A stretch of 63,202 nucleotides of DNA, the filler included, from Octopus bimaculoides (lineage: Eukaryota): NCBI RefSeq assembly GCF_001194135.2. It is 8 parts of 7 records of this genome, joined end to end, with 100 filler letters (N's around TTAATTAATTAA, not from the genome) between each part and the next. Parts side by side here need not be neighbours in the genome. Positions count along the whole stretch, not along the records: positions 1 to 14,461 come from NC_068992.1; positions 14,562 to 23,470 come from NC_069003.1; positions 23,571 to 35,542 come from NC_069010.1; positions 35,643 to 41,884 come from NC_068983.1; positions 41,985 to 44,913 come from NC_068994.1; positions 45,014 to 46,415 come from NC_068983.1; positions 46,516 to 54,648 come from NC_069002.1; positions 54,749 to 63,202 come from NC_068988.1. One strand, given 5' to 3'. Every line of letters starts with the position of its first letter. Within the stretch, counting starts at the first letter, position 1. Below the pieces are notes generated by a model. It saw nothing but the letters and a program-made list of their open reading frames with translations, ran no database searches and had not been told where the DNA came from. The position numbers were made by a program, and so were the translations under genes. Below are positions 13,712 through 55,600 of the stretch, piece by piece.

Positions 13712-13900
13712 TATTTACATTATTTACATTATTTACCCTTGACGGACATTTGTCCTCATCTTGTTTGTTGCTAACACAAAGATTCGGCTGATATACCCTC
13801 ATGCCTTCATGTCTTGGGGAAATTTCGGACCTTGGTTCTGTCAAATGTAAATAATGTAAATAATGTACATGATTTCTCATCTCTTAAATATAGAATTGTA
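13712..13900 (-). mobile_element. Hammerhead-bearing repeat family H, decayed copy with an inverted second terminus
   Basis: 13712-13836 aligns to 29610-29740. The ribozyme core is broken by a 5-nt deletion (CAGGT) and substitutions in GAAACG. 13837-13868 is an inverted copy of the same terminus. Confidence 0.75.
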
Positions 13901-14228
13901 TTAAAATGAAATATTGTATCTTAATGTAAATTATTTTTAAAAAGGCACAGGAAATTCAGCTTATACTTTTGCCTTTCCTCTGTATCCGAGACGATACACA
14001 TGACAGACCATCCGGGCGTCCAAGCAACTTGTATGACACACATTCTCAATTTTTTACGTCTATCAGAGTAACTTCGGACTTATGCAAAAGAAGCTTTATA
14101 TTTCTCTCAGAACATATAATACAATGGCTAACTAAAAGTTTGAACACCAGAATAGACGTTTAGAAGAGACTTATGAAAATGCTTTCGACAGGCAAAATGA
14201 TTATATAGGTAGACAGAGAGACAGACAA

Positions 14229-14405
14229 GTGCAGGCGTGGGTGTGTCTTAAGAAGCTTGTTTCCCAACCACATTGTTCGGAATTCAGTCTCACTGCGTGA
14301 CACGTTCGGCAAGTGTCTATTAGTATAGCCCCGTGCCGACCGCCGACAAAAACCTTGTGAATGAATTTAGTAGACGGAAACTGAAAGAATCCCGATGCAT
14401 ATATG
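14229..14405 (+). mobile_element. SINE family A, head half
   Basis: Diverged match to the family A head, followed by (GT)n. Confidence 0.8.
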
Positions 14406-14409
14406 TGTG

Positions 14410-14461
<52 letters not shown>

Positions 14462-14505
14462 NNNNNNNNNNNNNNNNNNNNNNNNNNNNNNNNNNNNNNN
14501 NNNNN

Positions 14506-14517
14506 TTAATTAATTAA
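14506..14517. other. Artificial contig-join linker TTAATTAATTAA
   Basis: The same 12-mer sits inside about 100-nt N blocks (44 N + 12 + 44 N, counted here) and has stops in all six frames. Also at 23515, 35587, 41929, 44958, 46460 and 54693. Confidence 0.95.
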
Positions 14518-14561
14518 NNNNNNNNNNNNNNNNNNNNNNNNNNNNNNNNNNNNNNNNNNNN

Positions 14562-14824
14562 AGTGCCCCTGGACTGGTTCTTGTGCGGGTGGCACATAAA
14601 AGACACCATTTCGAGCGTGGCCGTTTTCGTGCGGGTGACACGTAAAAGCACCCAATACACTCTCTGAGTGGTTGGCGTTAGGAAGGGCATCCAGCTGTAG
14701 AAACTCTGCCAAATTAGACTGGAGCCTGGTGTTGCCATCCGGTTTCACCAGTCCTCAGTCAAATCGTCCAACCCATGCTAGCATGGAAAGCGGAAAGCGG
14801 ACGTTAAACGATGATGATGATGAT
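14562..14824 (+). mobile_element. SINE-like family C with (GAT)n 3' tail
   Basis: GGTTGGCGTTAGGAAGGGCATCCAGCTGTAGAAAC core, internally duplicated GTGGCAC(A/G)TAAAAG unit, ends GGACGTTAAACGATGATGAT. At least 6 copies in the window. Confidence 0.85.
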
Positions 14825-15121
14825 ATAATGCTAATTTCAAGCATTATGAATGAGAGTTCAACACTGCATTGGTAGATAAATATTCTTTAATTGTGAGTTA
14901 ACAAGACAACCAATGGTTTTATGTAAAGAGATCTTCACAATTGTTCAAGTGTACCACATGGAAATGTTGGTAATCACTCCGATAAGGAATGGCCACCACT
15001 CAAATGCATTAGTGTTGTTGACAGAGACACACGGCTTGAAATTAAGGATCTGTCAGGGTTATTGGAGAACAGAGATTCCTACCACACCATTGTGAAATGT
15101 ATCTCAGTCGCCAGAAGAATA

Positions 15122-15350
15122 TATCATCATCATCATCATCATCGTCATCATCAATTAACATCCATATTCCAAGCTGGCATGGGTTAGACAGTTGCACAGG
15201 AAGTGGCAAACCAGAAGGTTCTACCAATCCCTGCTGTCTGCTTTAGCATAGTTTCTACAGGTGTATGCCCTTCTTAATGCCAACCACTTTACAGAATATG
15301 GTGGATGCTTTTTATGTGGTACCAGCATAGGTGCTTTTATACAGCACCAG
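15122..15350 (-). mobile_element. Family C, diverged copy
   Basis: (ATC)n followed by TTAACATCC...GCTGGCATGGGTT...TGCCCTTCTTAATGCCAACC. Confidence 0.7.
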
Positions 15351-15807
15351 CATCGGTAGGATCACCAAGTAAATTTGCAAAACAGAGCCTACCCCTTGGC
15401 TAGGAGAGGGGTGGTACTGAGAAAAGTGGCTATATACATAATATAGCTAATAGTGAGGGATTATCAATCCAGGTAAAATATCTCATAAGCTCTCTGTTGG
15501 GACACCAGGCTAACAATATTGTTTAGATTAGTGAAGAACTCTCCTTCTATTACGTGACCCCTTCCTCTATTCTTTCCTTCCTTCTCTTCACCTTATTGTA
15601 ACCTGTCTTCCTCTTTATCTCTCTTCCACTTGCCTTTTTTTCTCCTCCTCCCATTCCTTCAGTGTTCTGCTCTGTTATAACCAAAAAATGGCTCTGACAA
15701 AAGTAGCATTAATTTTTTAGGTCGTTTCCTAATTTTCCTCAATTAATCAATAGATCAATTGAGTAAACCTATCAGCAAGGTACCTATAATGACTACTGGA
15801 AACAACT

Positions 15808-15965
15808 GCATTATCTTAAGGCTTTGAGATTTTGATGATGTGATAACTTATTTTCAGAATAACAATGTAGGGTAAGTATGAGAGGCCAGATGTAGCCAGT
15901 TCGAACACAAAACAAGTAGAATATCAGGGCCAAGATATGGCTGGTTTAAAATGCTAAAGGGTTAA
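15808..15965. mobile_element. piggyBac-like MITE, one end
   Basis: Ends AATGCTAAAGGG followed by TTAA. Internal sequence matches 22707-22933. Confidence 0.7.
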
Positions 15966-16320
15966 AGTTAAGTTTTATTAGTGAAATGTAGTTGCTTTGA
16001 ATTTGCTGCAGAAAGTGGTGGTGGTGGTGGTGGGGCCCTAGGAATGTGGTCTATGTGCCAAGGGGGCAGCAGCCTGAAAAACGTTTGGGAAGCACTGATC
16101 TAGATGTTAAAGTCCCTAGCTTTTAATATTAAACGTGTTTGACTCGACAATGGAAAAAACACGGAGCAGGGGAGATAAGCACAAAATTCAAATTCAAGAT
16201 TGATTTATTTCAGAATAGAGTGGGAAGTGATTTTTATAATTTTCTAATACGATGACACATGTTTTAATCATATCAACTTTCAGCAGCAAACAATATTCTA
16301 ACTTTTATTTCCTGGATGAG

Positions 16321-16472
16321 ATGCAGGAATGAACGTGTATTTAAGAAGCTTGTGGTATCAGGTTCAGTCCAACTGCCCAACACATTGGGCAATGTCTTCC
16401 GTCATGGTCTTGGGCCAACCAAAGTGTTATACATGGTTTTGGTGGATGGAAACTGAAAGAAGCCCATCATAT
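16321..16472 (+). mobile_element. SINE family A, diverged head
   Basis: GGTTCAGTCC...CATTGGGCAA...GGAAACTGAAAGAAGCCCATC. Confidence 0.7.
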
Positions 16473-16607
16473 ATATATCGTTTGTAGAAAATATAAATCC
16501 GAAAAAAAAAAAAGCAAACTCTAAGATGTAGAGCAGTATATATCAAAAATAGGGAAGGTTGGTTTATAAGATTACCTTTGGTTTTCTGTCATGGGCCAAC
16601 AGGTTTT

Positions 16608-16671
16608 TGGGATCTGACGATACGCCATAAAGCTAAACCCTTTATGGATGGGGAAATTTAAGGCAATCCCA
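16608..16671 (+). ncRNA. Decayed type I hammerhead-like fold
   Basis: TGGGAT|CTGACGA, then the hairpin CCATAAAG/CTTTATGG, then GAAA, then ATCCCA (6-bp stem I abutting the core). The cleavage triplet lacks the required U. Confidence 0.35.
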
Positions 16672-16707
16672 TAAACCGGCCTTCCCCATTTTAATATATA
16701 TATATAT

Positions 16708-16763
16708 ATGATTGACCGTTGACTGAACACTATTCAATTTTTTTTCTCCTTGTCTCCGTATAC
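16708..16763 (+). mobile_element. Family F repeat, start of a copy cut by a gap
   Basis: ATGATTGACCGTTGACTGAACACTATTCAATTT...CTCCTTGTCTCCGTAT is the reverse complement of 41808-41872. Confidence 0.8.
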
Positions 16764-17887
16764 NNNNNNNNNNNNNNNNNNNNNNNNNNNNNNNNNNNNN
16801 NNNNNNNNNNNNNNNNNNNNNNNNNNNNNNNNNNNNNNNNNNNNNNNNNNNNNNNNNNNNNNNNNNNNNNNNNNNNNNNNNNNNNNNNNNNNNNNNNNNN
16901 NNNNNNNNNNNNNNNNNNNNNNNNNNNNNNNNNNNNNNNNNNNNNNNNNNNNNNNNNNNNNNNNNNNNNNNNNNNNNNNNNNNNNNNNNNNNNNNNNNNN
17001 NNNNNNATATATATATATATATATACATACATATATATATGTGGAGTACGTTTTTTTTTTATCTTAAGACCCCTGTATCTCAGTCTACATTTGCTCTACA
17101 TAGACATATTATACCTTTTTGGAATTAGGATGATCCCAGGTTTGAAAATCTGCCCTTCATTTGGTCTTTGAGCATTCAGCATTGAGAACTGATTTAAAAG
17201 CATTTAGGTTACTAATTCTTAGCTGATTCACACCATCTTGGTGGGCATTTATCTAGGAGGTGATAAATGATATTTGTTTCATTAATTTTATGTCAAGACA
17301 AGAACTTTAGAACAAATTGGTCAACAGTTGGAATTCAACTTGGGACTGGAATAATTGAATGATTGCAATATAGAATTAATTCTCATCAGTCCTTAACCTC
17401 TGATCAAACACCACCGGGGCATATAGTCATTATAGTCATGCTATTTAGCTCTTTTTAGTTTTAGGGCCACAGGCCCAATTAGCCCTCTGCAGGAGCCAGC
17501 ATAAAAGTTCACATGGAGTAGAGCTTTTAAGCTAATATCTATTAAAACTGAAACTTGAAATATTATACATGTATAGTGTTTAAGTAAATGTGAAAGAGAA
17601 TACATAGTATTCTCTTCAAAAGAAACGTTAATTCATAGCAGAAACATTCCCCCACTACCACCACCATCACCACCATCTTTGCCTGCCTAAACAAAATTAG
17701 CTCACTTCTGAGTGAAAGCTGTGTGATGAGAGAGGAGTATGAGTCAGTTGTTTGCTTGAGATGAGTAAAAGTTTAAAGTAGAGTGTGAAGTGTCTCTCAA
17801 GGTGTGTCCTGTTACTTGTGAATGTGGGTGTAAGTGACAAGTGAATACAATTTACAACAAAGTTGTGATTAAATCTGCTTTGGGATT

Positions 17888-17933
<46 letters not shown>

Positions 17934-18321
17934 NNNNNNNNNNNNNNNNNNNNNNNNNNNNNNNNNNNNNNNNNNNNNNNNNNNNNNNNNNNNNNNNNNN
18001 NNNNNNNNNNNNNNNNNNNNNNNNNNNNNNNNNNNNNNNNNNNNNNNNNNNNNNNNNNNNNNNNNNNNNNNNNNNNNNNNNNNNNNNNNNNNNNNNNNNN
18101 NNNNNNNNNNNNNNNNNNNNNNNNNNNNNNNNNNNNNNNNNNNNNNNNNNNNNNNNNNNNNNNNNNNNNNNNNNNNNNNNNNNNNNNNNNNNNNNNNNNN
18201 NNNNNNNNNNNNNNNNNNNNNNNNNNNNNNNNNNNNNNNNNNNNNNNNNNNNNNNNNNNNNNNNNNNNNNNNNNNNNNNNNNNNNNNNNNNNNNNTTATT
18301 TATTTATTTATCTGTGTATAT

Positions 18322-18531
18322 CTTTGTGTCTGTGTTTCTCCCTTTCCCCACCATCGCTTGATAACTAGCGTTGACGTGTTTATATCCCTGTAATTTAGCG
18401 GTTCGGCAAAATTGATCGATAGAATAAGTACTAAGCTTTTAAAAAATAAGTACTGGGGTCGATTCATACAATTAAAAATTCAAGGCGGTGCCCCAGCATG
18501 GTCGCAGTCTAATGACTAAAACAAGTATAAG
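18322..18531 (+). mobile_element. SINE family A, tail block
   Basis: Matches the family A tail. Confidence 0.8.
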
Positions 18532-20616
18532 ATATATGAATGTGTGCGTGTGTGTGTGTGTGTGTATAAGTGCGTGTGCATAGGCACGTACGTACGGGCG
18601 TGCGTCATATTCTTTGGCCGCTCGCGGTGGGGAGCGCAGCATTTTTTTTTTCTGGAAAATTGAAGTGGAGTGCGGGATAGAAACGGTTGAGAAACACTAG
18701 TGTAGCGTATGAAAAGAAAAAGTAGTGTCGAGTGTCGAGTGAAAGTGGAGTTTAACACGTTGAGTGTAGTATCCAGCTTTCATAGTTGTTAGTCTGTCAC
18801 AACCATGGCAACAGCTTCCCACAATGCTTTGCGAGCCAAAGCTTTAACATGGCGGTGAAATTTGTAAAGTGGAAACGTTGAGTTGTTGGAGAAATTATTG
18901 TCGACATTCGGCTTGTAGCAATGGACTCGTCACACTCTGCTGACTATCGCAGGGTTCTCCCTATAGCAGGTAATTTTTTAATGCTAACGTGTCTCTATGT
19001 TTGGTTTTTTGTCTCTAAATTGGTGTTCTACAGGTTGTTGAATGCCAACTTCTGATGGATTTGTTTTGATAATTCGTGGTCGGAGGCGAAGGAATGTTTT
19101 TTTTAATTATTCCTCACACGGATGTTGATGGATATTCTCATTTAAATGTCAAGGATGTAGTGTCTTTTCGGTCGATACAATCCAGTACTAGTAATATACT
19201 GATTTAATTCCCTTAACGATTCTAGTTAAACCTCTTTCTCTCGCCTCTGGTCCGAAAGACAAATGGTTTTGTGAAGCTAATAATGTCTTTAAATAAACCA
19301 CAATTATGACAAAGACATTATCAGCTGATCGCTATACTCTCTTTACTCTTTTACTCTATGATGAGCAATCTCCATATCAATGATTAAAAGTAATAATTAA
19401 AAACAAATCATTTGTTTTAACTTCAGGTGTTTATTGTCCAGTTTTCGTTTTAATTCTCAAAGAATTAAGAAATATCTCAGAAATAAACGTTAGATCTGTT
19501 TATTGGTCGAAACAATAACCCCATGTAGTGTTTCTTCTCATTTACATTTAAATTTCGTTGTCGGAATCTGTTTCGACTTCTGTAACTATTGTAATGATTA
19601 GTGGAGCCAATAGAATAAATACCAGTAATAATGTGGGTTCAATCAAATCCTGTCCTCGTCAGGATTTCGATTCCCACTTGTGCTTTGTTAGAGACGATTT
19701 TTACAAGTGTGTGTGCCTCCTGGATAACGTTAGTGAACTGATATTCAGCTGTGAGAGATATCTCAGACAAAATAAGATGACATGCCTTTGAGAATATCTA
19801 CAATGATTTATCCTAAGGGTTTTATTAACCATAAAACAATCGACAGAAAGCTACGAAGCTGACTCAAAGGCCGAGAGTTTCGTGCATGCCTCTCAAGCAT
19901 TTGAAGTCACGTCTGTAACTTTGTGCCGACAAATTCACAACTCTGGGTTTCGAACTCACAGTTGTGGACGTGGACTTGTGTAATTGTCGCAAACACGACA
20001 ATAAACACTTTTCAAAATTGTTTACATCCATACATACATCAAACCTACAGACATTTGATTTCTTACAAAGGTTCAAAAACCAGACCTATTCGACACTGTA
20101 ATAACTTTGCTTATTTCTGCTTTGTTTTGGTTAATAAATCCCTTTATTATTTCGGATAAATCATTGTAGATATTCCTAAATCTCTGTCATCTTACTATAT
20201 CTCTAATCATTTATCATCAACAAAATACCAAGTCACTAATATTTCAGTATGGAATACAGTTAGAAGTAAAATTTGTTCAGCGCGCTTAATTTCTTTCCAC
20301 ATAAAAAAAATAAGTTATGGGAATTATAATTTCGTGTCTATAAGAAGGTATTGATGCGTCGCTAATTGTTTTGGGCGTGAATAAAAGAACGGTAAATTTA
20401 GAATGGGTGCTGCTTATAAAATGTGATAAGATTCAGATGTTTTTTTCGTTCTCCCTATTTAAAACGATGTTCACTGAAAAAAGCAAAGCCTTTTTTTTTT
20501 AATCTTTGGCAGAACTGGTTTGGATAAGAACTCTAAGAGTTTGTGCACATTAATTACAAGCAATAGACTCTTGATAGGTTTCAAGAACTGCAGTTCTATT
20601 TACTAACATTATATAT

Positions 20617-20810
20617 CATCATCGTCCGTTTTGTGCTGGCTGAGTTGGACGGTTTGACAGGATCCGATAGGCCCTAAAGACTGCACCCTGCCTCAGTGTC
20701 TGCTGTAATATGGTTTCTAGGACTGGATACCCTTCGCAACGCTAATCACTTTACAGCACTTATTGGGTGCCGTTTTTTTTTTGTGTGTGGCACCAGCACT
20801 AGTGAGGTTG
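20617..20810 (-). mobile_element. Family C, diverged copy
   Basis: CATCATCGTCCG...GTTGGACGG...GGATACCCTTCGCAACGCTAATC. Confidence 0.6.
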
Positions 20811-20932
20811 CTATGCAGCTTGCAAGACTACCAACCCCAGGGGGCTAAGCGAATTAAAGGCCTAATTATCTACCAGGGTAGTATACTCATCTTTGCAGCA
20901 CCTCAGAATAAATTAAATCCAAAAAGTTAGTT

Positions 20933-21140
20933 GTTGGCAGAATCGTTAGCACGCCGGGCGAATTGTTTAGCGGCATTTCGTCTGTCTTTACGTCCTGAGT
21001 TCAAATTCCGCCGGAGTCGACTTTACCTTTCATCCTTTCGGGGTTGATGGAATAAGTACCAGTCGAGCACTGGGGTCGATGATTCGGCTTATCCCCTCCC
21101 TCAAAATTTCAGGTTTTGTGCCTATATTAGAAAGGATTAT
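20933..21140 (+). mobile_element. tRNA-derived SINE family B, full length
   Basis: TGGCAGAATCGTTAGCACGCCGGGCG head, GAGTTCAAATTCC B-box, central GTCGACTTTACCTTTCATCCTTTCGGGG block resembling conserved metazoan SINE central domains, and a short (TTA/TTG)n tail. Confidence 0.85.
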
Positions 21141-21676
21141 TGTTGTTGCTGTTATTATTATTAGTTCGTCCTTCGTTGTCGACAATGACCAAGGATATCA
21201 CATAGGAGAAGACGACGGGGCATTGTGTGTCCAGCTGGGTTAATTAGTCTGATGTGTATTGGGAAGGCTCTACCAAAGGTCAGGCCCTGGTGGTCTGTTG
21301 GGGTTGAAGGTGAGGAGTTGGCTCTGGTCTTGCATAGTTCGTTTATTTTGTGCCCCTGCAATTCTGTTGTTTGGTGCAGCTTTGTCAGGTAGGGCTGTCT
21401 TGTGCTTGTGTTTCTCGGGTGTCAGGGTTGATCTCAAAGCTTTTCAGTGAGGCTTTGAAGAGCTTTTTCTGTCCATGTTGTGTGTGCTTGCCTTCCGCCA
21501 GGAAATTTAGTTATTGTTAGACTGAAAGGAGCCAGTGTACCAATTAACCCAAATAAACATACAAATTGGGAATCCTTCATAGATTTTCTCAGACTGAACT
21601 TTTTCATTCGATGCAAGAGCCATATCAGTCTGATACGGTGTTCTTTACAAATGTATTATTATCATGTCGTATAGAT

Positions 21677-22174: not shown

Positions 22175-22209
<35 letters not shown>

Positions 22210-24567: not shown

Positions 24568-24842
24568 GCCAGTGCCGCTGGACTGGCTCCTGTGCAGGTG
24601 ACACGTAAAATACACCATTTTGAGAGTGGCCGTTGCCAGTACCGCCTGACTGGCCCTCGTGCCGGTGGCACGTAAAAGCACCCACTACACTCTCGGAGTG
24701 GTTGGCGTTAGGAAGGGCATCCAGCTGTAGAAACTCCTGCCAAATCAGATTGGAGCCTGGTGTAGCTATCTGGTTTCACCAGTCCTCAGTCAAATCGTCC
24801 AACCCATGCTAGCATGGAAAGCGGACGTTAAACGATGATGAT
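24568..24842 (+). mobile_element. Family C, well-preserved copy
   Basis: Collinear with 14562-14824 and ends in (GAT)n. Confidence 0.85.
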
Positions 24843-28628: not shown

Positions 28629-29605
28629 TTCCTTGACTGCTTGTACTACTTTTGTGTCGTCGGCATAGCTAGTAAGTGTGGCTGTCTGTGTAACTGACGA
28701 CATGTTTGAAAGAGCCACCATAAACTGCAGCAGCCCCAATACAGTTCCCCGAGGCACTCCACTCTCTATCACTGTCTCCTTGGAGGGCTCCATTCGCCGC
28801 AACCACCTGACACCTGTCTTTTAAGAAGTCATGTAACCATTTCCTGGTTTTCCGACTATGCCGAGTCTCCGTAGTTTGTGACATTTTATCCCATGATCAA
28901 CTTTATCAAAGGCCTTTGCAAAATCATGATATATCACATCCACGTTTCGGCGATTCATTAGGTGTGTCATCACCCTGTCAGAATGCAGCAAAAGCTCTAT
29001 AAGGCATCCTCTTCCTAAGCTGAAACCATGCTGGGTATTAGGGAGCAATGGATTTCCTTCTGACAATCCCTGCCATGATTTTGCTGACATGATAGGTCAG
29101 AGAAACAAGTCTACAATTTTTAGCATTCGCTCTACTACCTCTCTTACGGAGAGGAGATATACTTTCCTTTAACTTTCTGAGAAGTCTCCCAGTTTTTAAG
29201 AAGCTCAGGAAGGGGATCAGTAGTGGTCAGGGGCGGACTGAGAGTATTAAGGGCCCTCGGGCATAACTGTTTACCGGGCCCCTTTGAATGTGTGTTTTAG
29301 TAGAGTTAACATGTAGAGTGCGGGCCCCTCAGAGCTCCGGGCCCGATTGATCGACGGCTGGTAGTGGTCTTGCAAGAGCTTCTTTCCAATTCTTTAGGGG
29401 GGCTTGCTGGGAATCCATCAGGACTGAGTTTGAGCTCATTTCATCAGTGACTGATATAGCATCATCAGTGACTGATATTACATCATTAGTGACTGATATT
29501 ACATCATCAGTTTCCTCTATTTCGATACTATCAATGATAGCCATCTATTTGTGTAGAGCTATGGTGCCAAAGAACTCATCAGACATAGCCATTTGCAAGT
29601 GCCCC
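28629..29605 (-). mobile_element. CR1/Jockey-group LINE reverse transcriptase fragment, frameshifted
   Basis: Across frames: EMSSNS...LKNWKEALARPL, SISPL...NCRLVSLT, QHGF, DVIYHDFAKAFDKVDHG, WLHDFLKDRCQVV, SGVPRGTVLG, SYADDTK. Interrupted by a hAT MITE and carries a 21-bp triplication at about 29441-29510. Confidence 0.9.
29228..29360. mobile_element. 133-bp hAT-like MITE nested in the CR1 fragment
   Basis: Perfect 8-bp TSD GTAGTGGT (29220-29227 and 29361-29368), CAG...CTG termini, imperfect TIR, internal GGGCCC repeats. Confidence 0.8.
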
Positions 29606-29609
29606 AATG

Positions 29610-29772
29610 GTACATTATTTACATTACTTACATTTGACGGATATTTGTCCTCATCTTGTTTGTTGTTAACACAACGTTTCGGCTGATACACCCACCAGTC
29701 TTCATCAGGTGTCTTGGGGGAAATTTCGGAGTTGGGTTCTCATTCCTAAGGTATTTTTCGAAATTCCCCCCC
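29610..29772 (-). mobile_element. Hammerhead-bearing repeat family H (PLE pLTR-like), runs into a gap
   Basis: Aligns to 13712-13836 and contains the ribozyme fold below. Confidence 0.75.
29668..29713 (-). ncRNA. Minimal type I hammerhead ribozyme with canonical core
   Basis: GACAC|CTGATGA|A|GACTGG-TGGGTGTA-TCAGCC|GAA|ACGT|T|GTGTT. Stem I GACAC/GTGTT, stem II with one A-C mismatch (G-C in the 13.8 kb copy), palindromic stem III ACGT, predicted GUU cleavage after 29673. Confidence 0.75.
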
Positions 29773-35186: not shown

Positions 35187-35385
35187 TCATCATCATCATC
35201 ATCATCGTTTAACGTCCGCTTTCCATGCTAGCATGGGTTGGACGATTTGACTGAAGACTGGTGAAACCAGATGGCTACACCAGGCTCCAATCTGATCTGG
35301 CAGTGTTTCTAGAGCTGAATGCCCTTCCTAACGCCAACCACTCCGAGAGTGTAGTGGGTGCTTTTACGTGCCACCGGCACAAAGG
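35187..35385 (-). mobile_element. Family C copy
   Basis: (ATC)n GTTTAACGTCCGCTTTCCATGCTAGCATGGG... is the reverse complement of the 24.6-24.8 kb copy. Confidence 0.85.
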
Positions 35386-38634: not shown

Positions 38635-38847
38635 ATGCAGGCGTAGCTGTGAGGTAAGAAGCTTGCTTCCTAACCACATGGTTCCGGGTTCAGTCCCACT
38701 GCGTGGCACCTTCGGCGTCTTTTACTATAGCCTCGGGCCAACCAAAGCCTTGTGAGTGGATTTGGTAGACGGAGACTGAATGAAGCCCATCATATATACG
38801 TGAGTGTGTGTGTGTGTGTCTGTGTATGTGTGTGTGTGTGTGTGTCT

Positions 38848-38881
<34 letters not shown>

Positions 38882-39095
38882 CATTGTGTCTGTGTTTGTT
38901 TCCTCCATTACCGATTGACAACCAGTGTTGGTGAGTTTACATCCCCATAACTTAGCGGTTCGGCAAAAGAGTTTGATAGACTAAGTATTAGGTTGAAAAT
39001 ATAAATTCTGGGGTCAATGTGTTCGACTAAAACCCTTCAAAGCGGTGCTCCAGTATGGCTGCAGTCAAATGACTGAAAGAAATAAAATAATAAAA
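38635..39095 (+). mobile_element. SINE family A, full length
   Basis: Head, long (GT)n spacer and tail block are collinear with the other copies. Confidence 0.9.
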
Positions 39096-39513
39096 AGAAT
39101 AAAAGAATGCATACTTACACACACACATGCCCAGGCAATGCAGGACAAGGACATTTAGTTTCATTTAATTCAATCTTCGGTTGGAATCAAGTTCGACTGG
39201 CCCTCTGTGGTAAAGTTCTTATTTGTTATTAATTTATTTGTTCATAATGCACCTAACTGATATGCTGACCCGTCGGATATTCTGGAGTATACTTAATAAC
39301 GTACGACCAATACAACCTACGCGTTTGGATTACCCCACAGGCTATCAAAATACTCATAAGGGTTAACTTCTCTGTACACACAACGTATATTTTTCTCTGG
39401 TTATACTTCGGTACCCAATTTATCTATTCGACTAAAAGTGGTGTTTCGTAGTTGATTTCGACCCTACCTGGTGCCTACCATTTTAGTACTTGATTCCTTT
39501 GAATCTTTTATAT

Positions 39514-41001: not shown

Positions 41002-41676
41002 CTAGAAGAAAAAGTAGGCAAAAAATTATAATTTTCAGACCTGTTCAAAACTTTTGGTCACGCCTATATGTGCACTGGGATAATTTTGGCTCGGTCGTTC
41101 GTGTGCATATCGAGGTGAAGTTTTCATAGGTGCTTCTAAAAGGTTATTCAAGTGTGGCACTGAGATAAAACACAAGAAGCGTGAGTGCTGATAAAAAACA
41201 TCCCTGTTGACTCATGTCTCTTAGGAAACTAGCAGTGCTACTTCATGCAGTAGGATGAAATTCTTTGCATCCCCGTGTAGTAGTGCAAGTAACCTAACAA
41301 AATGTTTCAAGAACAGCCTTCACGTTTAGCATCACAGCTCACAGCATGCTGGGGTTTATGGAGTTGAGCCAACCTTCTAATAAATACTGACAGTTACAAC
41401 AAAATATGTTGAGTGCTACTATGCTTTGTTTTGTTTTTCTTGGTTTACCACAATCACTGATACACATACTCACACCTAAACATACACACACACACACACA
41501 TACACACACACACACATACGCACACACACATGCACACACTCTCACATACACGCACACATAGACATGCACACATATATGTGTGTGTGCTTTGGTGTGGTGA
41601 TTGCTGGAACAAACATGAGGAATAACACATTCTCTCCACACACTTTCTCTCTCTCTCTCTCTATATATATATACAT

Positions 41677-41872
41677 ATGGGAGAATATACGAAAAAACAA
41701 CAACAGACGAGGACAGGTGGTGTAAATAACAAAAGGATGTATTAGTATGACGCTCGGGAATACGGAAAGTCTTTGACGTTTCGAGCTACGCTCTTCAACA
41801 GAAAGAATACGGAGACAAGGAGAAAAACACGGAGAAAAGAAATTGAATAGTGTTCAGTCAACGGTCAATCAT
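41677..41872 (-). mobile_element. Family F short repeat flanked by (TA)n, carrying a hammerhead-like fold
   Basis: Related copies at 16708-16763 and 52485-52640. All three abut (TA)n tracts. Confidence 0.75.
41770..41806 (-). ncRNA. Minimal hammerhead-like fold with variant core CUGUUGA
   Basis: TCTTT|CTGTTGA|A|GAGC-GTA-GCTC|GAA|ACGT|C|AAAGA. Perfect 5-bp stem I, 4-bp stem II, palindromic stem III and a GUC triplet. A6 is replaced by U. Confidence 0.6.
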
Positions 41873-41984
41873 AATATATATATANNNNNNNNNNNNNNNN
41901 NNNNNNNNNNNNNNNNNNNNNNNNNNNNTTAATTAATTAANNNNNNNNNNNNNNNNNNNNNNNNNNNNNNNNNNNNNNNNNNNN

Positions 41985-42385
41985 GTGCTTTTTCTGTCTC
42001 TTCTCTCAAGGCTCGCCTACCAAGTATCCATAATAATTTTTCTATCGTCTTGGCTCAACAACCCGCACCGTTTGTTTTTACTGTCTTGTTCTCACTGTCC
42101 TGTTCTTGTTAACACTTTCACCCTCCGCAAAAAATTCCAAATTTTATTTAATTTGCTTTGCTGGAAGGACTGTTTCAACGAAGTCACGTATTGTCCTTGC
42201 CTACGAAACGCGGAGTAGATGAAACAGGGATAACTGATAAAGGGGTATACTCTTTATGTTGCATGTCTCGTTTCTCTGTTTTTTTATTTCGTCGTTCGAA
42301 AAAAAGTTCGTTTTCTATGTTTTTGTTTTTGTTTTCGTTTCTCATTGTGTTCAACGTTTTTTGATGTCCTGTACCCATATATGCA
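41985..42385 (+). mobile_element. Family G repeat fragment with a hammerhead remnant at 42170-42227
   Basis: CTGTTTCA-ACGA-AGT...AC-GAAACGCG-GAGTAGA-TGAAACAG. Outer 8-bp complementarity is intact, but core bases appear deleted. Ends in a TA-rich tract. Confidence 0.4.
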
Positions 42386-45395: not shown

Positions 45396-45468
45396 TGTCT
45401 TAATAACTGATGATGTGCGGGAGCAGACTTCAGCCCCGGCATCCGAAACTTTGAATTTTATCATGACA
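45396..45468 (+). ncRNA. Decayed type I hammerhead-like fold
   Basis: TGTCTTAATAA|CTGATGA, a GC-rich imperfect hairpin, then GAA|ACT-TTG-AAT|T|TTATCATGACA. Stem I pairs at 9 of 11 positions and abuts the core. Stem III has one mismatch, and the base of stem II is out of register. Confidence 0.4.
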
Positions 45469-46911: not shown

Positions 46912-46955
<44 letters not shown>

Positions 46956-47008
46956 AATTAAATTTGAATATTAAGCATGAATAATATAAAAATAAGACAT
47001 TTAAGATA

Positions 47009-47401: not shown

Positions 47402-48292
47402 TCATGTGTAAATTTATTATTTAGTGACCAACAGAAAACCACCCAGAGGGCAGTGTTTCTGTTAGTGTTAGTAATAATTTCTAATACAGTTCTAAGATTT
47501 GTAAAGGAATAGTATTTTTTTATACTTACTTTTGCCATTCTTTTAGCCTGTTTTTTACCACTTTTACGCTGTTTTTCATCTTTGAATAAATAACAAATAT
47601 ATCATAATATATATCCACATATATAAACAAAATATATATCATGAGTGAGGCTTATATTTATCATAGAAATGTTGCAATAAAGAAGGATTCAATTTGTGAC
47701 TTCAATAGCTAAATAGCTATGGCTATTTCAGTTGCAAAATACAGATGCGTCGTAGAATTAGAATTGTATTGTAAACATTCAGTCTTGCATTCGGGAAATG
47801 TCAACTAAAGCAACAACAATATTTATTGAGTACTGCAAAGGTTTAAACCATATATATATATTTTTTATTATATGTATTTATTTTCTCCTAGTAATAAATA
47901 ACTCAGATAAAATAAATTGGTTAATAGATACCAGGGTATCGGTTATAATGTCTTACGTTTAAGCTGGTTACCATACATTTCCCTGAGGAGAAGTTTACAT
48001 TTTTAACATCACCGATTCCTATGGATCGCATAAATTGTAATTCTTCGAAACATATGTCGGAATAAAAGTATGCAGTTATAATTTGCGTTTACTCCATTCT
48101 TTAAATTTATATATATATATATATATATATATGGGCATATATACATACACACATACATACAAACATACATACATATATATATAGTGTGTATATATATAGA
48201 AAAAATGTGTGTATATATATATATATATATATACATACGTACACACAGATAGATAGATAGATATATACACAGATAGACAGATAGACAGACAT

Positions 48293-48343
<51 letters not shown>

Positions 48344-49142
48344 TACATATATATATATATATATATANNNNNNNNNNNNNNNNNNNNNNNNNNNNNNNNN
48401 NNNNNNNNNNNNNNNNNNNNNNNNNNNNNNNNNNNNNNNNNNNNNNNNNNNNNNNNNNNNNNNNNNNNNNNNNNNNNNNNNNNNNNNNNNNNNNNNNNNN
48501 NNNNNNNNNNNNNNNNNNNNNNNNNNNNNNNNNNNNNNNNNNNNNNNNNNNNNNNNNNNNNNNNNNNNNNNNNNNNNNNNNNNNNNNNNNNNNNNNNNNN
48601 NNNNNNNNNNNNNNNNNNNNNNNNNNNNNNNNNNNNNNNNNNNNNNNNNNNNNNNNNNNNNNNNNNNNNNNNNNNNNNNNNNNNNNNNNNNNNNNNNNNN
48701 NNNNNNNNNAGACAGATAGATAGATATAGATATATACATTCATATACATATATTTACATATATGCATGCATATATATTGAACAATTGTGGAGATCTCTTA
48801 TGTATGAAACTGCTGTTTGCTTTTTGTTAACCCACAAATAATGTGTGTGCCTACCTGGGACCTGCTGCTCTCCATCTTCGTCAATTGCTGCTTTACTCCT
48901 TGAAGCTTTATGTTTCCCTGATTTCTTATCTTTTTGTCTTTTCTCCCGTCTGCCTTCCTCAATCTGACTTTCCGTATCATAATCTGCAGCCTCTGTGCAA
49001 GTAAGGACATATATATATCAGTATATTCCCTTAGTAGATACTATTATCATAATTGTTTTTATTATTATTATTTCATTTACTCACAATAGATTAGACTGCT
49101 GAAAAAAAAAAAATTACAAACATCAGATTACAACAATTAACT

Positions 49143-49268
49143 TTAGATGACAAGAACCTTCCTAAGTATCCTAACTGTTCCTAGTAATACTGTTTTCTGG
49201 AGCTGCACCAAACTAAGTTTTATGCCTATGTCCTCTCTCTATCTATTCAAATCTTTAGAGATAGTTCC
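49143..49268 (-). mobile_element. C-terminal end of an RLE-type (Hero/NeSL-like) non-LTR retrotransposon ORF
   Basis: GTISKDLNR*REDIGIKLSLVQLQKTVLLGTVRILRKVLVI-stop matches the LQKxxLLGTxRILRKVL terminus. An (AAC)n-tailed fragment and a maT terminus interrupt it upstream. Confidence 0.65.
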
Positions 49269-49982
49269 TGTTGTTGTTGGCACTCCGTCGCTTACGACGT
49301 TAAGGGTTCCAGTTGATCCAAGAAAGTTGAGGGTGGCTACTTTATGTAAATTGTTATCTCCCAGCCATAATCTAGCTGAAAGGTTTTTGATTTTTTGATA
49401 TAATTTATTTCTGTATGAGATATTGTGTTTTCTTTTCCTCCTATGCAAACTGTTGAATTTAGCTCAAACACCCTGTAGATGGAGATTCTCCCAGAACAAG
49501 AAAATCACATTATTCTTGTGTTCACATGCTTTGTGTAACAATCTGTATACCATGTGCAATTTGCTGGTGAGTTCCTTTTTGCTTAAAGTCCCCCATTTCC
49601 TGGGGGCTTGTTGATATTTTTTGTTCTCTCATCATTATTGTTGTTGATGGAGTCAGCTGTGGCTGAGAAGTACATCAGTGAGAGAGTGGGAGAATTTGCA
49701 GAGAACAATGGTGATGTTATGCAGGAGGTGAAAGTGTACAGGATTGAATTTCCGTTAGAGTAGGAATATTGCATAACTGGGTGAGAGATCTGTGTTGTTA
49801 CATTTGTCATTTAGCTGAGTACCTTTGCATCATAGGACTGCCCAATCAGGACATGTCTGGAACATGAACAACAACAACAGCAGTAACAACAATGACAACA
49901 ACAGCAACAACAGCAACAACCATAAAAATAAACAGCAGCAACAACATCATTTACACACCAGTCGAATGTCTGAATCAAATAC

Positions 49983-50422
49983 TTAACCCTTTAACATTCA
50001 AATTGGCCATATCTGGCCCAAATACTTTACCTATTTAATGTAGGTGTGAGAGGCCAGATCCAGCCTCTCACACCTACCCTACTATGTCATCCTAAAAATA
50101 AACAATCACATCACTGAAATCTCAAAACTATAAGATAATGCATGGTTAATTCAAAACGCTGTAAATAGATAAGGATTATATTTGACAGACTAATCTAAAT
50201 GCTAAGGGTTTCAGCCAGCCATATCCAGCCCAAATATTTCACCCATTTAATGTTTAGACTGTCCAGATTCAGCTTCTCACACCTACCCTACAATGTCATT
50301 CTAAAAATAAACAATCACATCACTGAAATCTCAAAGCTATAAGATAATGCATGGTTAATTCAAAACGCTGTAAATAGATAAGGATTATATTTGATCGAGT
50401 AATCTGAATGCTAAAGGATTAA
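49983..50422. mobile_element. Tandem dimer of the piggyBac-like MITE
   Basis: TTAA-CCCTTTAACATT start. Two near-identical units of about 215 bp end in AATGCTAAGGG (50208) and AATGCTAAAGGA-TTAA (50422). Confidence 0.8.
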
Positions 50423-50506
50423 ACAATTTGACAAACCTTGGGAGGAAGTTTCTTGCAAGAATGACGATTTTAGAAAACTAGATGTAGACAGCTGTTCCGG
50501 TTTTAC

Positions 50507-50754
50507 CATTAATTTTTTCGCTTTATCTCTGTCAGTCATTTGAAGAGTGTCTTTTTCTAAGCTATCAGCACTTTGAACTGTGTCCTTTGATATGGCATCC
50601 ACAGGATCTTCTGAATCTCTTAAACTTTTGGCACGAATATACTTTTTATCAGCAGCTGACTCTCTAGAAGCACCTTCGAATTCAATAGGTGGAGGACCTT
50701 CGAATCTCACTTTGGAACTGCTGGCCTCAGGTTCTTCGAGTACTCTCAAGTGGT
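50507..50754 (-). CDS. Internal coding exon (248 nt, phase 1/0) of the unidentified minus-strand gene; acidic, probably disordered
   Basis: TTTTTCTAATTTCAG|AC CAC...TTA ATG|GTAAAA. Open frame (D)HLRVLEEPEASSSKVRFEGPPPIEFEG...DRDKAKKLM, non-repetitive. Confidence 0.75.
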
Positions 50755-50768
50755 CTGAAATTAGAAAA

Positions 50769-50990
50769 ATCATCATCATCATCATCATCATCGTTTAACA
50801 TCCGCTTTCCATGCCAGCATGGGTTGGACGATTTGACTGAGGACTGGTGAAACCGGATGGCAACACCAGGCTCCAATCTAATTTGGCAGGGTTTCTACAG
50901 CTGGATGCCCTTCCTAACGCCAACCACTCAGAGAGTGTAGTGGGTGCTTTTACATGTCACCCGCACGAAGGCCAGTCAGGCGGTACTGGC
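50769..50990 (-). mobile_element. Family C copy whose tail abuts the 3' splice site of exon 50507-50754
   Basis: Reverse complement of family C. The (GAT)n tail ends about 14 nt before the exon. Confidence 0.85.
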
Positions 50991-51302
50991 AGTGTTTAGT
51001 AAGAAATGAAGTAGAATTGGTATTACATGTGAAGAAAATGGTATTACAATGGGATATAAACTGCAGCATGTGATAACGGACAGGATATGAGGTGGAGTAT
51101 GGGATCAGGAAAGGATATCAAATGAATGATGCAAAATTGGGACAGGATATCAACTGAATTATGAGATTGGGACTGGATATTATCTGAATTATCGGAATGG
51201 AAGAGGTTTTCAACAGTATAGGCCTGATGGATCAGGCTAATTTCAAGTATTACAACAACAATGACAACAACAACATGGCCAATGGAAGTATGAAAAATAA
51301 AC

Positions 51303-51568
51303 ACAGGCATGAGTGTGCGGTTAGCAACCTTGCTTCTTAATCATGTGATCTTGGGTTCAATCCCACCACATGGTATCATGGGCAAGTATAGCCTTGTCTT
51401 CTAGAATAGCTTTGGTCAACCTATAGGTTGACTAAAGTTTTGTGAGTGAATTTGGTTGGTGGAAACTGAAAGAAGCCCATGGCTGAGTGGTAAGAAGCTT
51501 GCTTCCCAACCACATGGTTCAGGGTTCAGTCCCACTGTGTAACACCTTGGGTAAGTGTCTTCTAGTAT
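51303..51568 (+). mobile_element. Two tandem family A heads, the second interrupted by an insertion
   Basis: Diverged head at 51303-51480. The second head (51481-51568) stops at GTGTCTTCTAGTAT. Confidence 0.75.
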
Positions 51569-51676
51569 AGGGCTTTCCTATAAGTAAGTTATCTCCCTTG
51601 GCTAGGCGGCGCTCCATGTAGATAATTAAACTTCCGGAGGCTAACCCACGCCATTGTTATTGTTTTACGTCTTATC

Positions 51677-51878
51677 ATGGATATAAAGCAGCTTGATGAT
51701 TCAGCTATCGAAGTACTTACTGTGCCTGAGTTAAAGAAATATTTAAGATTATATGGACAGTATGTTACTGGAAGAAAGGCGGACTTGACTGAAAGGTTGA
51801 AAGGAATAAAAATTCTGTTGATGAAGAATGTCAACAAAGTAAATTCATCGGACGATAAGTCTGAAGTATCGGACGATA
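51677..51878 (+). CDS. N-terminus of a SAP-domain protein on an inserted element (element starts about 51569; truncated by a gap)
   Basis: LTVPELKKYLRLYGQYVTGRKADLTERL fits the SAP motif (LTVxELKxxLxxxGxxxxGxKxxLxxRL). 67 codons with no stop. Confidence 0.7.
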
Positions 51879-52456
51879 NNNNNNNNNNNNNNNNNNNNNN
51901 NNNNNNNNNNNNNNNNNNNNNNNNNNNNNNNNNNNNNNNNNNNNNNNNNNNNNNNNNNNNNNNNNNNNNNNNNNNNNNNNNNNNNNNNNNNNNNNNNNNN
52001 NNNNNNNNNNNNNNNNNNNNNNNNNNNNNNNNNNNNNNNNNNNNNNNNNNNNNNNNNNNNNNNNNNNNNNNNNNNNNNNNNNNNNNNNNNNNNNNNNNNN
52101 NNNNNNNNNNNNNNNNNNNNNNNNNNNNNNNNNNNNNNNNNNNNNNNNNNNNNNNNNNNNNNNNNNNNNNNNNNNNNNNNNNNNNNNNNNNNNNNNNNNN
52201 NNNNNNNNNNNNNNNNNNNNNNNNNNNNNNNNNNNNNNNNNNNNNNNNNNNNNNNNNNNNNNNNNNNNNNNNNNNNNNNNNNNNNNNNNNNNNNNNNNNN
52301 NNNNNNNNNNNNNNNNNNNNNNNNNNNNNNNNNNNNNNNNNNNNNNNNNNNNNNNNNNNNNNNNNNNNNNNNNNNNNNNNNNNNNNNNNNNNNNNNNNNN
52401 NNNNNNNNNNNNNNNNNNNNNNNNNNNNNNNNNNNNNNNNNNNNNNNNNNNNNNNN

Positions 52457-52484
<28 letters not shown>

Positions 52485-52489
<5 letters not shown>

Positions 52490-52640
52490 GAATTTACAAA
52501 AAAATAAAAGACAAAGACGGGTGTGTAAACAACAAACAGATGTATTAGTTTAATGCTCGGAAAGTGAGAAAATCTTTAACATTTCAAGCCTATGCTCTCC
52601 GACAGAAAGGAACACAGAAATAAACAAGGAGAGAAAAGAT
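52485..52640 (-). mobile_element. Family F copy with decayed hammerhead-like fold at 52573-52610
   Basis: CCTTT|CTGTCGG|A|GAGC-ATAG-GCTT|GAA|ATGT|T|AAAGA, adjacent to (TA)n. Confidence 0.65.
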
Positions 52641-52891
52641 AAGAGGCCTTAGTGCCTCAATTTGAATTTGTATTTTTCTTGGTAAGAGGCTCAGTGCCTC
52701 AATTTGCATCCATTCTTTGAACTGAGGTAGGAGGTTCAATGCCTCACTTTGTTTTGTTGCAAAAAAAAGAGAATAATGTTTCCAAGAATGCAACAATCAG
52801 CAGGCGTTGTTTGCTTCTCCCACCAACCATTTTTTTCATTATCATTGTGTCTTTGTCGAGCCTGCAGCTGCATAGCCAATTTTATGAAATA

Positions 52892-53332
52892 AAGTAGCTT
52901 GCTTACCAACCACATGGTTCCAGATTCAGTTCCACTGCGTGGCACCTTGGGCAAGTGTCTTCAGCTATAGCCTTGGGCCAGCCAAAGGAAACATATATAT
53001 CTATGCGTGTGTGTGTGTGTGTGTGCGTGCGTGCGTGCGTGTGTGTTTGTCCCTCCACCATTGCTTGACAACTGATGTTGGTGTTTAAGTCCCCGCAACT
53101 TAGCGGTTCGGCAAAAGTAACCGATAGAATAAGTACTAGGCTTACAAAGAATAAGTCCTGGGGTCGATTTGCTCGACTAAAGGCAGTGCTCCAGCATGGC
53201 TGCAGTCAAATAAGTAAAACAAATAAAAGAATATATGTGTGTGTGTGTGTGTGTACTGTATATATGTTGTATGGAAACGTGTAGTGATTATTAAATAACT
53301 GTCTAACCATACTTCTTCTAATCTTATTTAAT

Positions 53333-53366
<34 letters not shown>

Positions 53367-53590
53367 TGTATGTGTGTATGTATGTCTTTGTGTCTGTGTT
53401 TATCCCTCACCATCAACTTTGGTGTTTACCTTCCTATAACTTAGCGGTTTGGCAAAAGATATCGATAAAATAAATACTAGGCTTTAACAATAAAACAACT
53501 ACTGGGGTCAGTTCATTCGACTAAAAACTCTGCAATGCGGTGCCCCAGCATGGCCACAGTTAAATGACTGAAACAAGTAAACGATAAAAA
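52892..53590 (+). mobile_element. SINE family A (52892-53231) plus a second tail block (about 53380-53590)
   Basis: Matches the family A head and tail. Confidence 0.8.
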
Positions 53591-53707
53591 ATTATCCATG
53601 TCTAAATCTATGTATCTTCTATATACTTATAAAAAGCAAGTTTGTTTGAAGATTAATCATTAATTTCACCAAATAAAATTGGCAATAAGTTAGTTTTGTG
53701 TGTGTGT

Positions 53708-53773
<66 letters not shown>

Positions 53774-53862
53774 ATAAGTGATCTTACCCCCATCATGCTT
53801 GCTGTGGACTGCCCCACCCACCGAAAACGGGTTTGGAGGTTGAGGGTAAATTTATAATTTAC

Positions 53863-53884
53863 CTTTATAATTCGAAGTTGAATA
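53863..53884 (-). CDS. Candidate 22-nt exon (phase 0/1; YSTSNYK plus G)
   Basis: TTAATTATTTTTACAG|TATTCAACTTCGAATTATAAAG|GTAAAT. The phase fits exon 50507-50754, but the donor overlaps a palindrome that may be repeat-derived. Confidence 0.3.
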
Positions 53885-54599
53885 CTGTAAAAATAATTAA
53901 TGGACAGCCAGAGCCTTATATCTTGTCAGTTAAGCTGCGAAAACAAGACTAAAATAACAAACGGAATGGGAATGAGTGACAGTTAGAAACGCTAAATGTA
54001 GACGAACTGTAATGAAAGAGTTTGTTCTGAATCAAAATAACACTGCAAATTTTTTAGCATAAATCGAATTTAGTTTATCAATTCCATACACACACAAACA
54101 CACACACACCACACGTATATAAATATATAAATGAAATTAAATATTAACCTCGTTTGCTTTCAAAATATTATTTTCTTCTCCAACTATAACATATTTTGTA
54201 GATTACATTGATCTCCAAAATGTAAACAAATACGTGCGGACGCGCACGTACGCATATGTGTATGTATATACATATGCGTGCGTGTATATAAATGTGTATG
54301 TGTATTTATGAGTGCATACACACACACATACACAGACGTAAATATGCATATACAGCATTTTAACGTGTATAAGGAAACCCCTAATTTGGGGGGCTTAAAA
54401 TTTGGAAAAAAAAGTTTTTGTAAGGGATTATAATACTATCCATGTCTAAAAAAAAAACTCCCATATTTTTTAAACCTAATTTTTGATAGAAAAGTATTCC
54501 TTACACGGTATGTATGAGTGAGACAAATATATATGCATGTGTGTGTGTGTGTGTGTGTATGTATATATGTCTGTGTGCATATACATATATATGGATGTG

Positions 54600-54648
<49 letters not shown>

Positions 54649-54984
54649 NNNNNNNNNNNNNNNNNNNNNNNNNNNNNNNNNNNNNNNNNNNNTTAATTAA
54701 TTAANNNNNNNNNNNNNNNNNNNNNNNNNNNNNNNNNNNNNNNNNNNNATATATATATATATATATATAGGTATGTATATGTATGTATGGATATATGCAT
54801 ATATTTATATATTATTTATATTATATATATATATGTTACATATATGTTACATATATATAACATATATAAGTATATATAAATATTATTTATATGCATATAT
54901 ATGTACAGATATATATATATATAACATATATGTATATGTTGTTGTATTTGGGGATGGTCATGTTGCCAGTTTAGCCAATAAAAA

Positions 54985-55081
54985 CACACGTAAACGCTCG
55001 TAAAGCGAAAACTCATAAAAAGAAAACTCGTAGATCCGGGGTCTCGTAAAGCGGGTCTTCGTAAAGTGAGGTATTACTGTA
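54985..55081. mobile_element. pogo/Tigger-like MITE end
   Basis: Repeated (C/T)TCGTAAAG(C/T)G units ending GTGAGGTATTACTG followed by TA. Confidence 0.6.
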
Positions 55082-55139
55082 TATATCTCGAAGTGTATTA
55101 GATTACATACAGCTCACAAAAGCTGGTATATTTATCTGG

Positions 55140-55600
55140 GTTGCTGAAACACAAACACAATCAATGATCTACTAACGCAAACAACACCAAATTCTACGAA
55201 GGCTGTCACCAAATGCTTGTCCGTCTAATTTTATTTCGTGTACTGTATTATAATGAGTTGCAATGGCACGTTGCTGTCCTTTCGCAGCATTCTACACGGC
55301 TAAAATGAAAAATAAACTTGTTCCCAAACAGAACCGCAATTATCTACACACAATTATATACACCAGCTACGTTGATGACATATTTATTGTGACAAATACA
55401 AACGTACATGCTGAAAGATTTCAGGAAAATCTTGAAAATAGCTCACTCTTAATATTTACGATCCGTCATGCCTAAACTCAAGCCGTAACACCCTCCTCCC
55501 ATCCTCACACATAAATATAGCGGTTAGGAATAACACATGTAACACCCCAGTTTACACACACAAAATACAGACAAGGTGCATTCCAGAATATTTCAGACGT
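55140..55600 (+). mobile_element. Penelope-like element reverse transcriptase fragment
   Basis: VAMARCCPFAAFY (vs GVAMGSPLGPxxANFY), then YVDDIFIV, then a thumb-like FT...NT...VYT segment. Frameshifted. Confidence 0.7.

Follow-up and report, generated by a model that had tools for sequence, protein, structure and literature searches.

The stretch of Octopus bimaculoides DNA analysed here (63,202 nt from assembly GCF_001194135.2, hereafter the window) contains 55,338 called bases and is rich in AT, microsatellites, N gaps and repeats resembling short interspersed elements (SINEs). Dispersed through it are short repeats bearing hammerhead ribozyme motifs, chiefly the unrelated families H and F, together with two singletons, a U-rich stretch (G) and a decayed reverse transcriptase (RT) fragment of a Penelope-like element (PLE). 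Of the eight named hammerhead sites, three are clear and a fourth is likely; the remainder comprise a borderline case, a dead copy, a site that is not visible and one that is unsupported. Judged by sequence, the clear cases appear to be minimal type I hammerheads, and comprise H2 of family H (29.7 kb), with a canonical core, and F2 (41.8 kb) and F3 (52.6 kb) of family F. The new point, which we put forward provisionally, is that the very abundant family F is fixed for U rather than A at core position 6 (U6).

Detection of hammerhead motifs

The strict descriptor (CUGNNG(A/G), an optional extra base, stem II of at least 3 bp, GAA, A...U, H and stem I of at least 4 bp) matched the window twice, at F2 and F3, both on the minus strand, against 0.025 matches per window in 200 shuffles; this and the other shuffle rates given here are somewhat flattering, since the descriptors were designed after the motifs were known. 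A mismatch-tolerant descriptor returned three matches, at H2 (score 12), F2 (score 8) and 16286 (score 6), with a background at scores of at least 7 that averaged 0.175 per window (40 shuffles); the match at 16286 was discarded as chance. Finally, a third descriptor, aimed at decayed copies and tested against 300 shuffled windows, found both singletons as well as H2.

It could be argued that such motifs are chance look-alikes in AT-rich repeats. Folding of the motif regions as monomers gave unremarkable and uninformative z-scores (-0.05 to -1.2, with +1.1 for F3), and unconstrained homodimer folding did not yield a hammerhead dimer. Rfam is likewise silent, with hammerheads absent at H2, F2/G and 16.6 kb and among the 150 rows listed of 188 for the whole window, although its models cover minimal motifs poorly, so that this silence is not counted against the motifs. 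Chance resemblance does appear to account for G, and possibly for the singleton at 45.4 kb. However, the descriptor matches at H2, F2, F3 and the 16.6 kb singleton lie far above the shuffles, and an extra A, a G10.1-C11.1 pair and an ACGU segment, all outside the core, recur in two unrelated families. For the motifs as a whole this explanation is extremely improbable, and for H and F it is already refuted by the shuffles.

Family H

The H2 motif (29668-29713, minus strand) consists of stem I, CUGAUGA, an extra A, stem II, GAA, a palindromic ACGU, U17 (at 29673) and stem I'. Stem II opens with a G-C pair and has an A.C mismatch at its second pair, where the other copy, H1, carries a pairing G. 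The motif is enclosed by the H2 repeat (29610-29772, minus strand), the upstream side of which enters an N gap. H1 (13707-13876, minus strand) is a genuine member of the family, with 84% identity to H2 over 130 nt, and retains a motif remnant (13775-13815) from which the start of the core, C3-U4-G5, is deleted and the palindrome is missing. Attached to its 5' side is a 40-nt stretch that repeats, in inverted orientation, the 3' end of H1 itself. The canonical core, CUGANGA ... GAAA ... UH, is intact in H2 and decayed in H1; of the hammerheads that a preliminary description of this DNA had placed in the family at 13.7 and 29.6 kb, the second stands (at 29.7 kb), whereas the first is, by its sequence, dead.

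Two further features adjoin H2. An inverted repeat with G-rich and C-rich arms lies directly upstream of the motif and runs into the gap (29715-29772, minus strand). In addition, an ATG within the core begins 25 open codons (29628-29705, minus strand) with a stop near the 3' end of the element; this frame did not match the N-termini of 54 relatives of the RT fragment described below.

Family F and its altered core

F2 is a repeat of about 200 nt (41676-41884, minus strand) with (TA)n on both sides. Its hammerhead-like motif (41770-41806, minus strand) has U6 at 41798 and a predicted cut after C17 (41775); about 99 nt beyond that cut lies its fixed 3' end, bordered by (TA)n. F3 (52484-52636, minus strand) is a diverged subfamily copy, 74.5% identical to F2 over 153 nt, and its motif (52574-52609, minus strand) has U6, a G at position 9 and a decayed ACGU. 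F1 (16700-16763, plus strand) is the 5' part of a further copy, placed in the family by 28 of 28 nt and cut by an N gap that starts about 10 nt ahead of the motif. F1 and F2 share a 5' boundary at (TA)n, which is unlike the 5' side of F3. Earlier, hammerheads had been proposed for this family at 16.7, 41.7 and 52.5 kb; the latter two are borne out by the strict descriptor, with a U6 core, while in F1 the N gap precedes the motif.

Except for U in place of A at position 6 (CUGUUGA), the layout of F2 and F3 is the same as that of H2. The extra nucleotide that separates position 9 from 10.1 and the G10.1-C11.1 pair are present in H2 and F2, with F3 having an extra A and a G.U pair; the palindromic 15.1-16.1 segment, which lacks a stable stem III, reads ACGU in H2 and F2 and is decayed in F3 and H1. 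The shared architecture attributed to the two families thus holds for the extra A, the stems, GAA, ACGU and H, but its pattern CUGNNG(A/G) masks the departure of family F at position 6. A proposal that U6 traps the core as a closed hairpin was set aside for want of specificity, since the monomer with A6 is predicted to close equally well (-8.7 vs -8.0 kcal/mol).

The core CUGANGA ... GAAA ... UH is not found in family F, both F2 and F3 having U6, and for this reason the family is classed as a variant, not a member, of the PLE minimal hammerhead ribozymes (min-HHRs). A literature search for hammerheads in octopus found no relevant paper; two published papers on octopus repeats leave ribozymes unmentioned, and the supplement of one is without any of these motifs. 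A search for U6-type cores also found nothing relevant, and Lunse et al. 2017, reportedly the largest survey of PLE hammerhead variants and dimer cleavage, or published supplements may already list U6 variants. Fig. S3 of PMC4209133 shows A6 in 56 of 56 representatives and U6 in none. The only natural change at position 6 found in print is the A6C of one phage, described as slow in Mg2+ and better in Mn2+ (PMC3088659, PMC7151607).

Family F at the read level

Read-level data cover family F only, and were obtained with the region 41672-41882 (211 nt) at a likeness of 80% in all four runs (one DNA, two RNA-seq, designated X21 and X22, and one RNA-like contig set), with differences listed from 5%. 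Three rows of small share (0.05) from insect and termite metatranscriptomes were disregarded. Matches to F2 comprised 12,820 DNA contigs, 3,254 of 12.9 million and 3,121 of 12.0 million RNA reads, and 248 RNA-like contigs, counts that indicate a very abundant family, the depth being no copy number. At position 6 (41798), no letter besides U reaches 5% in any of the four runs; since one difference would not keep a read from aligning, A6 is rare among F2-like copies, and reads of subfamilies whose loop II is longer may be clipped short of this position.

Within the 37-nt motif, the sole site that varies at 5% or more in DNA is position 17, with C at 67%, U at 33% and never G. No stem variant reaches 5% in DNA, U4 is altered in 3.9% of the DNA depth and the ACGU palindrome in 0.7%. 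Compared with the downstream flank, in which 12 of 94 sites vary, the motif has 1 variable site in 37 (p = 0.11), or 0 in 36 if position 17 is excluded (p = 0.036). The upstream flank, with 1 variable site in 66 (one change private to F2 excluded), is no different from the motif (p = 1.0). Selection on the F fold is suggested, and only suggested, because the motif is no more conserved than its upstream flank.

Changes at 41777 and 41783 are seen in 9-13% of RNA reads and in less than 1% of DNA. At 41787, 270 (X21) and 178 (X22) RNA reads exit F into one common other sequence, with an agreement of 0.98. The two changes and these exits likely derive from one well-expressed locus, and the exits likely reflect a well-expressed host transcript bearing a truncated F copy that lacks the core. 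Among F RNA reads the two mate directions are equally frequent, which fits either passengers in host transcripts or an unstranded library. Read ends form no pile-up at the predicted cut or elsewhere in F, in random-fragment RNA-seq that is a weak test of cleavage.

These data bear on whether the U6 core could be an active variant that cuts as a dimer, aided by an element protein or another metal ion, with selection keeping the fold. The confinement of variation in the DNA to position 17, and there to the permitted C and U, speaks for such a variant, as does the excess of variable sites downstream once that position is set aside, but the upstream flank is equally invariant and about 4% of F DNA depth is already altered at U4. 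Likewise, position 7 varies among F versions while position 6 stays U (in F2, F3 and two low-depth loose-end consensus rows). Precedents from other systems point both ways: the natural A6C is reported to cleave well in Mn2+ (PMC7151607) and an anole hammerhead to cleave only in the presence of protein (PMC11167929), whereas a mutational scan links changes in the CUGA turn to low activity (PMC9901934). No RNA read ends at the predicted cut. An active U6 core seems unlikely, albeit credible, and the F hammerhead is most likely slow or inactive. It is distinctly doubtful that F is a (TA)n-targeting Penelope derivative of thousands of copies, with U6 fixed across diverged subfamilies, that is still self-cleaving as a dimer. 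If true, this would provide a natural CUGUNGA hammerhead invisible to standard descriptor searches, and a hint that PLEs reported without canonical hammerheads may carry off-consensus ones.

The Penelope-like reverse transcriptase fragment

Around a YVDDIF motif at 55176-55469 (plus strand) lies a decayed PLE RT fragment, recognised by alignment with PLE RT motifs and interrupted by stops. Pfam alone gives a weak match (E 0.085), and a word-index protein search produced 16 candidates and no matches. A HMMER search with 72 stop-free residues gave two matches at E 2e-4 among 1.84 billion representatives, and of 8,000 proteins scored, 662 belong to the family of these relatives at E 1e-40 or better, 120 of the 662 being listed. 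A profile built from 121 proteins matches the window only at 55275-55469 (E 1e-10; next best 0.44), confirming the PLE RT noted previously, in a decayed state with stops. In the relatives, the RT is followed by a C-terminal GIY-YIG domain (Pfam match in one of four scanned), and by sequence the fragment groups with C-terminal-endonuclease PLEs. It is an isolated internal piece on the opposite strand to F3, 2.6 kb away, with unrelated repeats, microsatellites and a gap in between. As such, it shows that PLEs exist in this genome and is no demonstration that they gave rise to H or F. Directly after it, at 55630-55710, is an 18-nt inverted repeat resembling a miniature inverted-repeat transposable element.

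Origin of families H and F

Taken as a whole, the folds, the fixed 3' end of F, the (TA)n flanks, the inverted end-copy in H1 and the longer form of F in RNA suggest that H and F are probably 3' terminal (pseudo-long terminal repeat, pLTR) fragments of several Penelope-like families, likely 5'-truncated. Inverted end-copies are reported to be typical of PLE insertions (PMC8557442), and it is because the H1 end-copy and the fixed 3' end of F fit such insertion that H and F are read as PLE 3' ends. In the RNA-seq runs, 454 and 647 reads extend beyond the F2 5' end and into a longer sequence common to them, 30 letters of which are visible, so that F represents, at least in part, the terminus of something longer.

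On this origin, it would likely be the RT and endonuclease of the element that copied H and F into AT-rich DNA. By analogy with known PLE biology, reverse transcription would start downstream of the hammerhead, so that each short insertion would include the motif; a copy on its own would be unable to form stem III and hence inert, and cleavage would require two motifs paired via the ACGU palindrome. F most likely multiplied while carrying a ribozyme that is slow or crippled, cleavage not being required for insertion (as seen in vitro for an anole PLE), and its fold may have been kept by recent shared descent or a structural role.

Several results weigh against the derivation of H and F from PLE termini. 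No PLE reading frame lies beside any motif within the window, and the 54 long RT relatives gave no N-terminal match adjoining H, F or G. Among metagenome contigs, no locus turned up either for the F-motif pattern or when a full-length relative of the RT was used to scan for loci. With two copies per family, neither the F2-F3 nor the H1-H2 comparison shows a two-sided compensatory change in the stems, and the whole F motif is, as given above, only weakly more conserved than its downstream flank and no more so than its upstream one. Finally, the common 5' boundary of F1 and F2 fits a discrete short element.

This last point raises the prospect that F, possibly together with G, represents a separate short element that is non-autonomous, spans about 200 nt between two fixed ends, and is transcribed and moved in trans by a (TA)n-targeting PLE; the ribozyme of the short element may or may not cut. 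At the F 5' end (41873), 250 and 190 RNA reads exit into AT-rich sequence; with the single 5' boundary at (TA)n in F1 and F2, the fixed 3' end and the great abundance of the family in DNA and RNA runs, these would be consistent with such an element, and animal retrozymes are themselves described as derived from PLE pLTRs (preprint 10.64898/2026.07.22.740005). However, the reads that run on into the longer sequence outnumber those that stop at the boundary, the 5' side of F3 is different, and the AT-rich boundary letters could favour repeated truncation by microhomology. The equal mate directions, moreover, fit passengers in host transcripts or an unstranded library. A discrete element of this kind is thus a possible but less than likely source of F.

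The families might also be non-LTR (long terminal repeat) retrozymes, in which hammerheads cut tandem units into small circular RNAs. The F unit of about 200 nt falls inside the 170-400 nt retrozyme range (PMC7229834), and a few go-back joints exist in F, several of them returning to 41692. Yet such joints make up at most 38 of 6,375 RNA reads on F2 (<1%) and have many different start points, no dominant circular joint was found in the two RNA-seq runs (libraries without enrichment for circles), and 53 tandem-repeat rows of the window contain 0 hammerheads. The motifs belong to the minimal class known from PLEs, kept apart from the canonical retrozyme type in PMC7229834, and canonical type I hammerheads with loop-loop contacts were not found, the motifs being minimal and without an Rfam hammerhead match. 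A retrozyme origin is very improbable, and for F it is largely refuted already. The preliminary description of ribozyme-processed, non-autonomous PLE derivatives is supported as to PLE-type min-hammerheads (H, and F with its altered core), whereas processing finds no support, there being no tandem arrays, few go-back joints and no pile-up of ends at the cut site.

Relation to known elements and significance

Returning to the pLTR origin, H, F and the singletons are mostly of a known kind. Min-hammerheads in metazoan PLE pLTRs were described in 2014, with more than one family in a genome and most motifs occurring as dispersed single copies that probably stem from truncated PLEs; their monomers did not cut and their dimers cut weakly (Cervera and De la Pena 2014, PMC4209133). 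These share with H and F the type I form, a short stem I, an extra nucleotide after position 9, G10.1-C11.1 and a palindromic 15.2-16.2 stem III. In contrast to F with its U6, all 56 in the list given there have A6; the list is without a cephalopod, and H and F, unlike motifs placed in PLE pLTRs, adjoin no PLE open reading frame (ORF) in the window.

A further counterpart is the hammerhead of PAc, a Poseidon element of the anole (Frangieh et al. 2024, PMC11167929). Its insertions end 111-118 nt into the ORF with the cut at +26, 85-92 nt apart; it targets AT-rich DNA, its hammerhead mutants still insert in vitro, and no RNA-seq reads ending at the cut are reported. Thus PAc and F are alike in an insertion end fixed 85-99 nt downstream of the cut, in AT-rich targets and in the lack of RNA-seq ends at the cut. 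PAc differs in its canonical core and in an ORF that starts in the hammerhead, a start that F lacks; H has an ATG in the core.

Phage Bcep176 (Perreault et al. 2011, PMC3088659; PMC7151607), the source of the A6C noted above, resembles F in its natural change at position 6, but has C, in a single phage sequence with full stems, where F has U in a very high-copy animal repeat with a minimal fold. Animal non-LTR retrozymes (Cervera and De la Pena 2020, PMC7229834; Li et al. 2026 preprint) are, like H and F, short, non-coding, hammerhead-bearing and PLE-related; they are arrayed in tandem, use canonical type I hammerheads and have circular RNAs, whereas the copies of H and F stand singly, are dispersed and carry minimal motifs. 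Naiad PLEs (Craig et al. 2021, PMC8557442) share (TA)n insertion with F and are reported there to lack canonical hammerheads, some having a "half core". The published Octopus Naiad 3' ends examined are unlike F, and the RT fragment in the window groups with C-terminal-endonuclease PLEs. F as a Naiad 3' end found no support: in the Naiad supplement, marker words of F and H are absent save for one match in an unrelated context (the search was for exact words, and a match might be masked by divergence or a line break).

The role of PLE hammerheads has been called unclear (PMC8557442), and insertion in vitro needs no cleavage (PMC11167929). An abundant family such as F, with its whole fold kept and a core letter altered, offers a natural test of that role. 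If F does not cut, large-scale amplification within a genome could do without cleavage, and the fold may have been retained for some other reason; if F cuts, the hammerhead core consensus and descriptors based on CUGANGA would be too narrow. H, the singletons and the RT fragment add one further animal genome to the pattern described in 2014.

Singletons, G and other repeats

Of the two singletons formerly listed as hammerhead-like, the one at 16.6 kb (16608-16671, plus strand) is probably a decayed hammerhead; its stem II is long, and it has a longer stem III segment. Its CUGACGA is intact, with a 6-bp stem I and an 8-bp inner helix, the stem II junction pairs and the U16.1 position are broken, and its score of 14 was reached in 0 of 300 shuffled windows. 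The other, at 45.4 kb (45403-45461, plus strand), is by sequence a borderline relic, its score of 8 being reached in 7.7% of the 300.

G (41986-42375, plus strand) is, like F, a U-rich stretch that ends in CCCA(TA)n. Its supposed hammerhead at 42.2 kb is not upheld: it is present as a single copy in the window and fits none of the descriptors. A GAAAC lies 29 nt upstream of CUGAUAA, within an 8-bp hairpin, and the next GAAA downstream is about 60 nt off. In Octopus Naiad 3' ends, GAAAC is reported about 25 nt upstream of CUGAUGA within a hairpin, as a "half core" (PMC8557442), and by sequence it is possible that G and these ends share an undescribed structure.

The window also contains more than 10 copies of a two-part SINE-like repeat with a central (TA)/(TG) microsatellite (449-849, 4418-4837, 12042-12268, 13166-13328, 38636-39096, 52892-53594 and others). 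By eye, we take 28821-29096 (minus strand) to be an RT fragment of the long interspersed element type, 59104-59538 (minus strand) a Tc1-like transposase fragment, 59817-60446 (minus strand) a gag-like frame with a CCHC knuckle, and 51626-51870 (plus strand) a SAP-like domain. Finally, a young repeat family ending in (GAT)n, with copies up to 96% alike, is found at 14562-14839, 15138-15327, 24571-24842, 35192-35385 and 50756-50991.

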